Source: Escherichia coli (lineage in GTDB: Bacteria > Pseudomonadota > Gammaproteobacteria > Enterobacterales > Enterobacteriaceae). From it: a stretch of DNA of 19,275 nt. Shown here piece by piece: positions 1,081 to 19,049 of the stretch. The translations under genes were made by a program, and so were the position numbers. How positions within the stretch are numbered: position 1 is the stretch's first letter; every line of letters begins with the position of its first letter. The notes under the pieces are model-generated. The model had not been told where the DNA came from. It did not search any database and saw nothing but the letters and a program-made list of their open reading frames with translations. Location: assembly GCF_003334335.1 (NCBI RefSeq), contig NZ_QOWQ01000054.1. One strand, 5' to 3'.

Positions 1081-2038
1081 TTAGTGGCTTAACTCATGAC
1101 AACCTGCTGTGTAATTTGCGTTTTCACCACTGATATCTAACAGCGCCTGGCGAAAGGAGGCATTAAACATTGGCCCGTGTCCCAGGTTGGGGAAATCCCA
1201 AAATACGGCATTGACGCCTTTATCTTTCAGTATAGTGAGGGGGGGGATAAATTTTCGACAGCACCCCGACAGCATGCGTTTCCCGGTTATCACCCTGTGT
1301 CGCCGTGCCTTCCATTATCGCCAGGTGTTTGGCGAAGAATTGCAGAGGCTCAACCGCCGTAACGCGGCTTAGCAAAGCATCATAACCTCTGCCCAACGAC
1401 GGGCTGGCGCTGTAGTACGACCGGAAGTAAGAGGAGGACAGCCAGGAATCCAGCACGAAGAGGCCGCCGTAGGAGTGCCCCCATAAGCCGCGGCGTTGCC
1501 GATCGATATTCAGTCCCTGTTCCACTTTTGGGGCAATACGCGTTTCCAGTAACTGGCGGAAGTTGTTGCTGCCACCACTCTTACGGCTAAAACGCCCTGA
1601 GTGGAGATCTGTTTTTCTGCTTTCTGTTGCTGGCATATAGTCGTAAGCCCTGCTGTTGAGATCGAAAGGGAGGTTGGTCTGATACCCGACAGCCACGATC
1701 ACTGGCGGTGTTTTTTCTGACAATTGTTTGAGCAGTTCGTCATCCAGGCGGTCCATAACTGCGTTACCGTCAAGCATATATAAAATCGGGTAACCCGATG
1801 CCGGTGCGGTTGTATTCGGCACGGCCGTCCATACCCGATAATGGCGTGTGCCATCGACAGAGTCGAAAGAGGTGGCGCTGAAATGGTAAAACACGGAGCC
1901 TTTATCGGCTATATTCGGCCCCAGTGGCCGCATATCCGGCTTCGCATAAACTTGCGCACTACAGATAAGGGTGAGGCAAGAAAGATGAAAGAAAATCGCT
2001 TTATGCGGGCGTGTTGAGCGATACTCGCGGGCATACAT
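1081..2038 (-). pseudogene. iroE: iroE (periplasmic salmochelin/enterobactin esterase, alpha/beta hydrolase), interrupted by a frameshift in a homopolymer tract
   Basis: ORF 1220..2038 (-) gives a hydrolase with the GHSYGG nucleophile motif; ORF 1081..1293 (-) in another frame gives the expected C-terminus (...PPLTILKDKGVNAVFWDFPNLGHG...). The two frames meet at the G8 run 1239..1246 (C8 on the coding strand); removing one base merges them into a product of about 319 aa. Could be a genuine pseudogene or a homopolymer sequencing error. Confidence 0.7.
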
Positions 2039-2122
2039 CTGATGATTATTCCTTTTCCGCAGGTGACAATTTGATTTATTCAGGAAGTCTGTACCGTTTC
2101 CTGAAAGTGTTTGTGGGTCAAC

Positions 2123-3352
2123 TCAACCCTGTAGTAAACCAATCCCGTCAATCAGTGCACCGCGCCACCATGCGTAATCGTGACCACCGGTGTAGATTGC
2201 GCAATGGCTTTCGACGCCAGCGGTAATCAGCCGCTGGTGAAGTTGCTGAACGTGAGGCACTGTCGAACCTTCCAGCGATCCCACGCACAGGCTGATACGC
2301 ACGCCCTGCGGTGGGGCAGAAAGCAGATGCTCACTCACCCATGAGGTATCGGTTTCGCTGAACAAGCCTGGTCGACTGGTTCTTTCTGGCGTCCACCACA
2401 TTGAAGGAGAGTGGCTGAGCACCAGACCGAACGTTTCCGGTGCGTAACGAGCCCCCATTAGCGCACTGATCCCGCCGAGGCTCTGCCCGGCCAGCACTGT
2501 GCGCGAACGGTCTGCCCACTGACGCTGCGGTTGTTCAGCGCGGATCATCGGCAGCAGATGTCCTGCGATATCCTTTATCAGCTTGCTGCGCCTGCCGAGT
2601 ATCTCAGTGCGTTCATGTTCATTAATGTTGTCAATGCCCAGTACAGCCACGGGCACGATGCGCCTGTTATTTATGGCGGCGTCAATTGCCGCGCATACGC
2701 CAAGGTGATCAAACCAGGTTTCACCATCGGGCAGCACGACCAGCCCGAGGGGCTGAGAAATATCAATGTCCGGAATATAGAGCCGAACCTGGCGAGATTT
2801 CCCGGCGATAATGCGCATGGAGGTAAGCAGTTGTCCGGTGTGGAAGCCGCCGTTCCATTCCGACAGGGCGGGAGCTTTATCAAGTGTCAGCACTGATTCC
2901 TTTGCGTTTCCCCGAACGTTGATCTCCGGCATTTTGTTTAGCGGATCGGCCTTTCCGGCGAGGGTGGCAAAACGGCCTCCGGACAGTGCAATCGTCTCAG
3001 CCGTAGTGCCGGGGGGGATTTCCAGCAGCGAATAGGAGCCGCAGTAACTTGCGGGTAAACGCAGTGTCAGTGTCCAGATATCCGTTTCGGGAAGGGCGCT
3101 CATCATTCCTTTTTCTACGTGCTCTTTATCCGTCACCCGGTTCAGACGCTGACAAACGCCCTGCAGAGGATGTCGGGCGCGCCACAGAAAGGTCACTTCT
3201 CGCTCATCTTCCGCTCCTTCGACTGGCGTCACAAGAGGAACATTCAGCGACTCAGCTTCGCGCCAGAAGTCAGTAAGGTTAGCAATGTGGCCCGCTGCCA
3301 GTTGGTTGCGCAGGCTGGCGATAGCAGAGGGATGTTGTTGCATGTTCAGCAT
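2123..3352 (-). CDS. iroD: iroD (Fes-like salmochelin/enterochelin esterase), apparently intact, 409 aa
   Basis: Single 409-aa ORF; C-terminal esterase domain with the GQSLGG nucleophile elbow; N-terminus MLNMQQHPSAIASLRNQ matches my recollection of E. coli IroD; positioned between iroC and iroE as in the iroBCDE operon. Confidence 0.88.
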   Translation of the reverse strand: MLNMQQHPSAIASLRNQLAAGHIANLTDFWREAESLNVPLVTPVEGAEDEREVTFLWRARHPLQGVCQRLNRVTDKEHVEKGMMSALPETDIWTLTLRLPASYCGSYSLLEIPPGTTAETIALSGGRFATLAGKADPLNKMPEINVRGNAKESVLTLDKAPALSEWNGGFHTGQLLTSMRIIAGKSRQVRLYIPDIDISQPLGLVVLPDGETWFDHLGVCAAIDAAINNRRIVPVAVLGIDNINEHERTEILGRRSKLIKDIAGHLLPMIRAEQPQRQWADRSRTVLAGQSLGGISALMGARYAPETFGLVLSHSPSMWWTPERTSRPGLFSETDTSWVSEHLLSAPPQGVRISLCVGSLEGSTVPHVQQLHQRLITAGVESHCAIYTGGHDYAWWRGALIDGIGLLQG

Positions 3353-3440
3353 TCATACTCTTTAAAAATTAAGGATGTCAGTATAAATAATTAAAGCGGC
3401 TATTCACGGTACCGCCGCTTCTGACTGTGTTTTTAATACA

Positions 3441-4760
3441 TTACGTGTCCAGTAAATATCCCGGGGTTTCCTCCTTCATGTTGTGCTGGCGATGGAGCGC
3501 AGTACTGCTGACGCTGTCATGCCATAAGCGGGTATAGAGGCCGCCTGCAGATAACAGCTGTTCGTGGGTTCCGTATTCCGCAAGTAACCCCTTATCAATA
3601 ACGGCAATCAGATCGCAGCGTTGCGCGGTGGTCAGACGATGTGCAACAATCAGCGCCGAGTGCTTCCCGGCATGCACGACATCTGTTAACGATGACATCA
3701 GTCGTTCTTCGGATGTGCGATCCAGACATGACGTGGCTTCATCGAGCAGCAGGATGTGAGCATTCGCCAGTTGCGCGCGGGCCAGCGCAATCAACTGGCG
3801 CTGACCTGCGGACAGATCGGCTCCGCCGTTATTCACCGGTGTCCGGAATCCCTGCGGCAGATTGCACACCATCTCATACAGCCCTGCCCGCTGTGAGGCA
3901 ATTTCAACGTCTTCATTGGTGGCGGATGCCGTGAATAACGAATGTTTTCTGCAATATCACTACTAAACAGTGCTACATCCTGATCGACAAGCCCAATCTG
4001 GCGACGATACTCAGTGAGCGAGGCATCATCGAGCATTTGCACACCGATTCTGATGTTGCCGTGCGTGGGGAAATACAACCCGGCAATCAGCTTAATCAGC
4101 GTCGACTTACCCGCACCGCTGCGACCGACGACCGCGACAACCATTCCCTCAGGGATCGTCAGGGTAAGTTTGTTCAGAGTTGGCTCGTGACTGGCGGGAT
4201 AACTGAACGTGACCTCATCAAGATGCAGTGCACCGGTGACGGGGAGGAGCGAAGAGGACCCGAGGTCCTCAGTGCCTTCTGTCGCCAGTAGTTCATCAAT
4301 ATGTTTGCCGCTGGCTGTCGCCTGCTGCCAGGCGTTGACAATCCTTGATAACTGCTGCCAATCCTCGATCGAATAGAGCGGAATACGCAGTTGCGCGGAA
4401 GCGCTCCGATAACGCGCGCAGCGGGACGCCCTCCAGTTCCTGCTGATTATGCGATTGCACGACGCGCAGGCCGGAGACTTTCTCCTGCAGGGTGCTTGTT
4501 GACTTTGCCCGTGCCTGTGCATAAGAAGGGGTACTGAGGCGGCGATAAATCATGGTTGCCATTGCGGCCACTGGCACTGTGCTTAATGCCGTCAGCGCCA
4601 GGAACGGGTCGAGCCAGAACATGGTGGCGGCGATTGCGAACATTGTCACCAGACTGGTGGCCGCACCGGTAAGGCCGTTTTGCAGAAAGCGGGCGAGAGA
4701 GTCTACATCCCCATTTACCGTCTTATATCACTGGTGCCGGCAGACAGGAGTTTCATGAAA
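3441..4760 (-). pseudogene. iroC: iroC (ABC exporter) remnant: only the C-terminal transmembrane/ATPase part, with at least two frameshifts; N-terminal part and iroB absent
   Basis: Three overlapping minus-strand ORFs (4296..4649, 3833..4522, 3441..3872) in different frames together give ABC-exporter features: a membrane helix region (FAIAATMFWLDPFLALTAL), Walker A GRSGAGKST, signature LSAGQRQ, Walker B ILLLDEATS. One shift maps to about 3935..3945 (...IAENIRY in one frame, ...ATNEDVEIASQRAGLYEM in the next). Homology stops near 4730..4760, far short of a full-length iroC of roughly 1200 codons (size from memory). Confidence 0.8.
4715..4734. repeat. 20-bp sequence TTACCGTCTTATATCACTGG; exact inverted copy at 18915..18934
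   Basis: Direct comparison: 4715..4734 equals the reverse complement of 18915..18934 (20/20). Lies at the 5' truncation point of the iroC remnant. Confidence 0.9.
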
Positions 4761-18907: not shown

Positions 18908-18914
18908 GTCAGCG

Positions 18915-18934
18915 CCAGTGATATAAGACGGTAA
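18915..18934. repeat. inverted copy of the 20-bp sequence found at 4715..4734
   Basis: CCAGTGATATAAGACGGTAA is the exact reverse complement of 4715..4734; located 7 bp from the right end of the IS481-family element and 40 bp upstream of intron B domain V. Confidence 0.9.
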
Positions 18935-18973
18935 CGGTCAAACATCGTGGCGTTGACACAAATGAGTGAGCAA

Positions 18974-19049
18974 GAGCCGTATGACGCGAGGGTGTCATGT
19001 ACGGTTCCGTGAGCAGCCGGGGGGGGAAATTCTCTCCGGCTGACTCGAC
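18974..19049 (+). ncRNA. group II intron remnant (intron B): domain V, domain VI and 3' splice site
   Basis: 18974..19007 reads GAGCCGTATGACGCGAGGGTGTCATGTACGGTTC, a canonical domain V (AGC triad, 2-nt bulge, tetraloop). 19011..19020 (GAGCAGCCGG) pairs with 19036..19046 (CCGGCTGACTC), leaving a single bulged A at 19043, seven nt before a predicted intron end ...CTCGAC at 19049. Sequence differs from intron A domain V, so this is a second intron. Confidence 0.75.

Follow-up and report, generated by a model that had tools for sequence, protein, structure and literature searches.

Eight runs of seven or eight G lie on the plus strand of a 19,275-nt stretch of Escherichia coli DNA (contig NZ_QOWQ01000054.1 of assembly GCF_003334335.1; hereafter the window), which carries a remnant of the iro gene cluster, an operon resembling those for aggregative adherence fimbriae (AAF), aat genes and fragments of group II introns. 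Overall, these runs are best explained as genuine and vertically inherited parts of a chromosomal island that are prone to slippage through ordinary mutational biology, a reading to which we assign a probability of about 0.8. The phenomenon is of a well-known kind, mononucleotide-repeat slippage, accompanied by a modest enrichment that is common to AAF operons.

The original prediction, made from the letters of the window, listed seven of these runs, and a direct scan found each at the exact coordinates and length given: G8 at 1239-1246, 5874-5881, 9510-9517 and 19019-19026, and G7 at 7144-7150, 7763-7769 and 16388-16394. It had overlooked a further G7 at 3011-3017, within iroD, and two runs of six at 152-157 and 7196-7201. 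On the plus strand of the window, the same scan found no C run longer than five. The labels attached to the runs also hold. Loci that are 99% identical carry RefSeq annotations of iroE, chaperone and usher, as well as of iroD and the aat genes; the pilin and aatD labels are based on operon position and similarity to AAF/pAA genes; and placement of the last run in a domain VI loop is upheld by a match to Rfam RF00029 (18972-19049; 50.8 bits against a gathering threshold of 40), in which the run falls within the domain VI loop columns.

Run Lengths in Independent Assemblies

The runs had been proposed to be either hotspots for slipped-strand mutation or a signature of homopolymer sequencing error, and comparison of tract lengths among independent assemblies and related strains had been suggested as a check. 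Ten independent contigs (L031-L040) were found in public assemblies via the exact pilin allele of the window. Their sources are NCBI drafts, ENA metagenome assemblies and Logan assemblies of sequencing runs; most are short-read, they derive from different samples, and their identity to the window is 99.93-100%. L035 matches positions 275-11501 (11.2 kb) at 100.000%, and L031 and L032 are 99.94% identical across the whole length of the window. The chaperone run (G8), all three usher runs and the pilin run (G8) have the same lengths as in the window in 10 of 10 of these sub-lineage assemblies, as do the iroE run (G8) in 7 of 7 and the aatD (G7) and intron (G8) runs in 2 of 2 each. The sole run whose length is not reproduced is that of iroD. 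Homopolymers of A or T in the same contigs agree fully, apart from one T9 that is T10 in one draft, and the 46 A/T homopolymers of at least 6 nt in the window have the modal length of reliable assemblies, except for one at 15955 that is altered by a base substitution. Because the run lengths, bar that of iroD, are reproduced by ten independent assemblies, the sequencing-error reading was rejected for the window. An edited or planted sequence was likewise rejected, as independent assemblies are identical to it.

On a wider scale, a chromosomal island found in approximately 54 of 5426 complete E. coli genomes aligns to the whole window at 99.0-99.5% identity, and Escherich's strain, NCTC86, is among the genomes that carry it.

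Slippage in iroE and iroD

A run-length change that disrupts a gene is seen in iroE, a pseudogene at 1081-2038 (minus strand) whose sense strand reads C8 at 1239-1246 (G8 on the plus strand), one base more than an in-frame G7 allele. An open reading frame (ORF) at 1220-2038 encodes the frameshifted product of 272 aa, in which KIYPP is joined to PHYTER and a stop codon, and removal of one G from the run restores a 318-aa IroE with a normal C-terminus identical to that of intact alleles. Four states of this site were observed. Canonical plasmid iroE reads GGGTGGT, in frame; three island strains read GAGGGGG, in frame and annotated as intact; four read G7, also in frame, three of these being annotated as intact and one having an internal stop elsewhere; and the window and 11 of 18 island strains read G8 and are frameshifted. 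In an exact-sequence look-up, the 272-aa product was present on 951 contigs (919 with the common allele, P0016, and 32 with that of the window, P0018), and an intact, in-frame G7 protein with the same backbone as P0016 (P0017) was present on 40. The indel thus lies inside the homopolymer, G8 and G7 occurring on an otherwise identical protein backbone. The suspicion that the iroE frameshift is unreliable was not borne out: the lesion is genuine and inherited and is the majority state of the island. Annotators should retain the pseudogene call as true and not "correct" it.

The run overlooked in iroD proved to be a second slippage site. It is C7 in the sense strand (3011-3017, minus strand; Pro-Pro in EIPPG) and in frame in the window, and it is G7 on the plus strand in 19 of 19 complete-genome loci and in plasmid iroD. 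Five of eight near-identical assemblies that cover iroD have G6, which splits the gene into pieces of 137 aa and 256/269 aa. The 137-aa C6 frameshift product of the island allele was present on 40 contigs, and a clearly different, plasmid-type allele with the same out-of-frame tail was present on 143, compared to 873 contigs with intact iroD. That the same out-of-frame tail is found on two allele backgrounds (P0239 and P0241) shows directly that slippage at this run has recurred on independent backgrounds. In annotation, it deserves to be marked as a second site of genuine differences between close genomes.

Both genes lie in an iro cluster that, by RefSeq annotation of homologous loci, is itself decayed, with an iroN fragment that lacks the N-terminus, an iroC that is truncated and frameshifted, and no iroB. 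The pattern differs in no essential respect from that of slippage pseudogenes in decaying clusters, namely, a one-base homopolymer indel that sets the gene apart from its intact orthologue by run length only, inherited by many genomes and, for iroD, recurrent on independent backgrounds. No description of the iroE C7/C8 and iroD C7/C6 sites was found in the literature that was searched.

Runs in the Fimbrial, aat and Intron Sequences

The coding runs consist of two or three adjacent GGG glycine codons plus flanking G, or, in iroD and iroE on the other strand, of a CCC-CCC proline pair. In the chaperone gene, the G8 at 5874-5881 (plus strand, as are all of the following) reads AAG GGG GGG GTT and lies at residues 234-236 of a 255-aa ORF. 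It is in frame as G8, and synonymous variants (AG7 and G6AG) exist in some strains. A G7 form, in which the frameshift replaces the last 19 residues, was found on 28 contigs, versus at least 1771 in frame (~1.5%). Three runs lie in the usher gene: G7 at 7144-7150 (AGT GGG GGG GAA, Ser-Gly-Gly-Glu), G6 at 7196-7201 (TGG GGG GTG) and G7 at 7763-7769 (TGG GGG GGA, Trp-Gly-Gly). The first of these has frameshift variants on three contigs (G6 on two and G8 on one) and the second has a G5 variant on two, so that predicted frameshift products at two of the three usher runs total 5 contigs versus 307 in frame (~1.6%). The run at 7763 is invariant in reliable assemblies, with no frameshift product on record. 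The G8 of the major pilin gene, at 9510-9517 (TAT GGG GGG GGT, Tyr-Gly-Gly-Gly), is specific to one allele, other alleles having G7 (WGGGK), G8 (RGGNGK) or no run. The G7 of aatD, at 16388-16394 (GGA GGG GGG GTA), contains both GGG codons of that gene. The aat genes of plasmid pAA-EA11 contain no G/C run of seven or more and were rejected as carriers of the aatD run.

The last run, at 19019-19026, is non-coding and lies in the terminal loop of domain VI in a 3' fragment of a group II intron. Its length among island genomes is 7, 8, 9, 10, 12 or 14-15 and differs even between islands that are 2-5 single-nucleotide polymorphisms apart. This intron was compared with the ltrA intron of pAA-EA11 and is not homologous to it. 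Across reliable complete assemblies, three of the four G8 runs vary in length, versus 2 of 10 A/T runs of at least 8 nt, each of which varies in one genome.

The proposal that the runs are slipped-strand hotspots therefore stands in part. Changes in length are documented for iroE, iroD and intron domain VI, and rarely for the chaperone and usher runs; no frameshifted variants of the pilin run, the aatD run or the usher run at 7763 were found in reliable data.

Excess of Poly-G Runs and Its Origin

The impression that the runs are many for an enterobacterial sequence of this size was substantiated. Eight G runs of at least seven in 19.3 kb is approximately 14 times the E. coli chromosomal rate, as estimated from four 50-kb samples of a chromosome, in which 200 kb contained six G/C runs of at least seven and two of at least eight. 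The corresponding expectations per 19.3 kb are 0.58 versus 8 observed (Poisson P = 2e-7) and 0.19 versus 4 observed (P = 5e-5). First- and second-order Markov models of the window predict 0.6-0.8 G runs of at least seven, and none of 2000 simulations reached eight; models of order 3-5 were discarded as circular, since the runs themselves are learned by the model. Shuffling of synonymous codons within the intact genes of the window, which keeps the protein and codon usage of each, gave an expectation of 1.12 runs versus 6 observed, a number reached in 0 of 2000 shuffles.

That all runs are of G and none of C on the plus strand is not significant by itself, because the base composition is skewed (41.7% G+C, with 4330 G and 3702 C) and Gly-Gly is far more common than Pro-Pro here. 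The Markov expectation is 0.76 G runs and 0.20 C runs, about four G per C, and over 11 related operons the codon shuffle predicts 0.48 C runs of at least six, with none observed. Accordingly, the asymmetry was rejected as a sign of artefact or of replication strand.

Those 11 operons comprise that of the window, AAF/I, AAF/III and eight further operons of the Afa/Dr/AAF type, and together they contain 18 G runs of at least seven, versus 7.7 expected from the codon shuffle. The excess is located in the three low-GC AAF operons, the window, AAF/I and AAF/III having 4, 4 and 2 runs versus 0.64, 0.59 and 0.42 expected. Distant loci from Izhakiella (50% identity), Citrobacter youngae (33%) and a metagenome-assembled genome (MAG; 32%) had no sense-strand G run of at least seven in a genome-contig scan of four loci. 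Because the distant loci lack runs and the eight closer operons are at expectation, the excess is confined to the AAF subclade, and a trait of the whole usher family was rejected. On pAA-EA11, AAF/I has G10 in aggD, G8 in aggC, G12 in aggB and G7 in aggA, which amounts to four of the eight G/C runs of at least seven on a 74-kb plasmid, all within 4.4 kb; the agg3/agg5A operon has two G8 runs, in agg3D and agg3C. Two runs of the window lie at codons homologous to those of AAF/I, the chaperone G8 corresponding to the G10 of aggD and the usher G7 at 7763 to the G8 of aggC. The operon of the window is thus similar to AAF/I (aggDCBA) and AAF/III-V (agg3DCB-agg5A) in gene order, in usher identity (68-70%), in its excess of sense-strand G runs and in two runs at homologous codons. 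It differs in being chromosomal, in having a pilin and a chaperone that score under the curated family cut-offs, in having runs shorter than the G10 of aggD and the G12 of aggB, and in having no AggR gene in the window.

Part of the abundance of runs has been shown to follow from the presence of Gly-Gly-rich proteins in which GGG makes up 20-37% of glycine codons. A further, approximately sixfold excess of GGG-GGG pairs appears to characterize the low-GC AAF subclade, and it may be attributable to a mutation bias that extends runs (GnT to Gn+1), the reading frame being fixed by purifying selection. A T that follows a G run is a hotspot for mutation to G, which lengthens the run, as revealed experimentally in Pseudomonas and comparatively in Salmonella (Horton et al., 2025, PMC12344412). 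The canonical GGGTGGT and island GGGGGGG sequences of iroE differ by exactly two such changes, each of which puts G in place of a T that immediately follows a G run, and this suggests a role for the hotspot at one site. The iroE run would have grown by point substitution and then slipped, from canonical GGGTGGT through GAGGGGG and GGGGGGG to GGGGGGGG.

Once present, mononucleotide repeats of 7-8 bp would act as sites of slipped-strand mispairing, and the outcome of a slip would be set by selection. In the iro remnant, slips persist (+1 in iroE, from G7 to G8, and -1 in iroD, from G7 to G6, the latter in part of the sub-lineage and not in the window) because a cluster without iroB and with broken iroC and iroN is no longer needed. 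In the non-coding loop of intron domain VI, run length drifts freely. In the fimbrial and aat genes, frameshifted variants reach a level of only ~1-2% and are presumably purged.

Several observations fit this account less well. In iroE, several flanking haplotypes carry G8 and one of them also carries G7, a distribution that would require either two slippage events or recombination; recombination is the likely source of the ambiguous flanking haplotypes. The case for a run-extending bias is built on two substitutions at one site and a published mechanism, and such a bias does not explain why an excess exists in the AAF subclade but not in Afa/AAF-II relatives. Furthermore, some differences in run length between genomes are technical, and the low-frequency frameshift variants from Logan may include errors.

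Alternative Explanations

If homopolymer errors in sequencing or assembly had determined the run lengths of the window, the iroE frameshift would also be a technical artefact. Such errors do occur in public data. Homopolymers are under-called throughout LT601384 and CP134718, and four assemblies of NCTC86 (L010, L019, L025 and L026) give discordant lengths for 10 of the 20 homopolymers (6 nt or longer) that could be assessed in the left half of the island, among them the chaperone and usher runs; the usher run at 7196-7201 has lengths of 7, 5, 6 and 6 in these four. Some rare run-length variants may be technical for this kind of reason, but the conclusions on iroE and iroD are independent of them. 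For the window, error is highly improbable, given the recurrence of its run lengths in ten independent assemblies, one of them identical over 11.2 kb, the many contigs that encode the G8 product of iroE, the consensus lengths of its A/T homopolymers and the fact that frameshifts are not spread over its genes. The practical consequence is that public "complete" assemblies of E. coli, including some of NCTC86, are unreliable at exactly these runs, and that run-length differences between genomes need short-read or replicate support. A different alternative accepts the iroE sequence and supposes that full-length IroE is still produced from C8, whether through +1 ribosomal frameshifting at CCC-C or through transcriptional slippage. 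CCC-C sites are prone to +1 slips (tRNA-Pro, m1G37, EF-P), the mRNA of the frameshifted allele has a Pro-Pro-Pro stall motif (CCC CCC CCU), and the G8 allele is very common. Nevertheless, the cluster has lost iroB and has a broken iroC and iroN, the adjacent iroD is likewise undergoing inactivation by slippage, the iroE of one island strain is interrupted by an internal stop rather than by the frameshift, and intact G7 alleles coexist on the same backbone, all of which make recoding extremely improbable. A stimulatory element was neither sought nor seen.

With respect to the abundance of runs, composition by itself would mean that they arose by chance in proteins that are rich in Gly-Gly and use GGG fairly often. 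This idea is in agreement with the eight other Afa/Dr/AAF-type operons, which have 8 G runs of at least seven versus a shuffle expectation of ~6.0, and composition predicts the complete sense-strand bias. It is nonetheless decidedly improbable as the whole explanation, considering the excess in the window operon, AAF/I and AAF/III, the failure of any synonymous shuffle of the intact window genes to reach the observed count, and the confinement of the only two GGG codons of aatD to its run. At the opposite extreme, the chaperone, usher, pilin and aatD runs might be contingency loci, selected for reversible slippage that switches fimbriae and dispersin export. The tracts do lie inside the coding sequences of these four genes; four or five of them occur in one 4.5-kb adhesin operon, above the number predicted from codon usage; AAF/I and AAF/III share the trait and include longer runs (G10 in aggD, G12 in aggB, and G8 in aggC, agg3D and agg3C), with two positions homologous between the window and AAF/I; and aggB frameshift products are found on 65 of 944 contigs (~7%), many assemblies breaking at the G12 run of aggB. 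However, ON and OFF lengths are not both common. OFF-length variants are rare (~1.5% for the chaperone, ~1.6% for the usher, 0.3% for the G10 of aggD and none for the G8 of aggC), and 0 of 10 sub-lineage assemblies are OFF, all ten being in frame. The runs are not concentrated near 5' ends (residue 233 of 255 in the chaperone and 128 of 171 in the pilin), many other alleles interrupt the run synonymously or lack it, some having no Gly-Gly, and in mismatch-repair-proficient E. coli a run of 7-8 is short for switching at high frequency. No report of poly-G switching in AAF genes was found in the literature that was searched. Selected switching of the runs in the window is therefore unlikely.

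The runs can be compared with known switching systems. Like the contingency loci of Neisseria, Haemophilus and Campylobacter, the window has poly-G tracts inside adhesin-assembly and surface genes, several per operon; unlike those loci, its runs are shorter (7-8), OFF states are rare, there is no 5' bias and the host is mismatch-repair proficient. Another such system is the poly-G run of rmpA in hypervirulent Klebsiella pneumoniae, for which high-frequency mutation and phenotype switching are reported (bioRxiv 10.1101/2025.09.12.675794). Here, too, a virulence gene that an enterobacterium acquired horizontally contains a poly-G run in its coding sequence. The population frequencies of variants at the window runs, however, are low.

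Genomic Context of the Runs

The gene order of the island, derived from RefSeq annotation of homologous loci together with Pfam, NCBIfam and Rfam, is iroN fragment, iroE, iroD, truncated iroC, an IS630 remnant, chaperone, usher, AfaD-like subunit and pilin, followed by a dispersin-family gene, IS remnants, aatPABCD and a group II intron maturase fragment, and then by an IS481-family transposase gene and an intron domain V-VI fragment. The genome paper of NCTC86 described the region as an AAF-like chaperone-usher locus with an Aat/dispersin homologue (PMC5382810). The iro part matches ColV-type plasmids at 98%. A megablast search of PLSDB with the fimbrial and aat parts gave no close match, only IS fragments, and a plasmid origin was dropped, the island being chromosomal. 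In two NCTC86 assemblies, the aat half is not adjacent and is rearranged across ISCro1. One contig of a MAG labelled Collinsella sp. (JAIJJM010000008.1) is 98.5% identical to the island over 10.3 kb, which is almost certainly a binning error.

The AAF-like operon (chaperone, usher, AfaD-like subunit and pilin; 5176-9644, plus strand) holds four of the eight runs. At the nucleotide level it is 72.9% identical to aggDCB, the nearest named operon, and 71.5% identical to agg3DCB, and its usher is 70% identical to AggC, 68% to Agg3C and 68% to AafC. Matches to the PapD_N/C, Usher and AfaD families of Pfam and the order of chaperone, usher, AfaD-like subunit and major subunit place it within the Afa/Dr/AAF type. 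It could not be assigned to a named AAF type (I-V), as the pilin has no NCBIfam match and the chaperone and usher fall under curated cut-offs. The pilin gene (9129-9644) is hypervariable: 20 islands that elsewhere are 99-99.9% identical encode six or more alleles of the protein, which share conserved N- and C-terminal ends and differ in the part between, a pattern that suggests diversifying selection or recombination. Downstream of it, a 115-aa ORF at 10141-10488 belongs to the dispersin family (Pfam PF28204), and a 30-bp indel is found in the pilin-dispersin spacer at position 9960, where ATTGAATTTAAAAATTATGCTATAGTCAGT is present in one island genome (L002) and missing from the window. Fimbriae, dispersin and the Aat exporter are therefore encoded together on a chromosomal island, and the gene for AggR is absent from the window.

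Runs of T also vary among island sequences. A T8 run at 5954-5961 sits precisely in the interval from the chaperone stop (5943) to the usher start (5962/5974); L002 has T9 there, and two NCTC86 assemblies have T7. The 403-aa ORF of aatD contains a T9 run in its 5' part (16243-16251); draft L031 has T10 at this place, and the called start moves as a result; the start of aatD in RefSeq differs by genome, giving genes of 1098 or 1047 nt. Two 3' fragments of group II introns occur in opposite orientation, at 17419-17868 (minus strand) and 18972-19049 (plus strand), and their RF00029 matches, at 17459-17535 (minus strand) and 18972-19049 (plus strand), flank an intact IS481-family transposase gene at 17925-18896. 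The domain VI G run is present in the second of these fragments only. Elsewhere, on pAA-EA11, sepA contains an in-frame G9 with an inverted copy (C9) 16 kb away (56275-56283 and 72042-72050), the latter apparently being part of a duplicated sepA fragment.

Implications

The island displays the same kind of hotspot in two settings: where selection is lacking (the iro remnant and the dead intron) and where purifying selection acts (the fimbrial and aat genes). It is doubtful that the low-GC AAF subclade (the operon of the window, AAF/I and AAF/III-V) keeps its poly-G runs as distributed, weak contingency switches. If it did, slippage in a chaperone, usher, minor-subunit or pilin gene would give rise to a heritable and reversible non-fimbriate subpopulation, the shorter runs of the window would represent a weaker setting of this device, and a slipped-strand system of phase variation would exist among the adhesins of E. 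coli, for which, to our knowledge, textbook switching involves only invertible promoter elements and Dam/Lrp methylation switches. Whatever their origin, AAF-type operons, including that of the O104:H4 outbreak plasmid, contain more and longer sense-strand G runs than codon usage predicts, and this excess could affect the stability of expression of aggregative adherence fimbriae.

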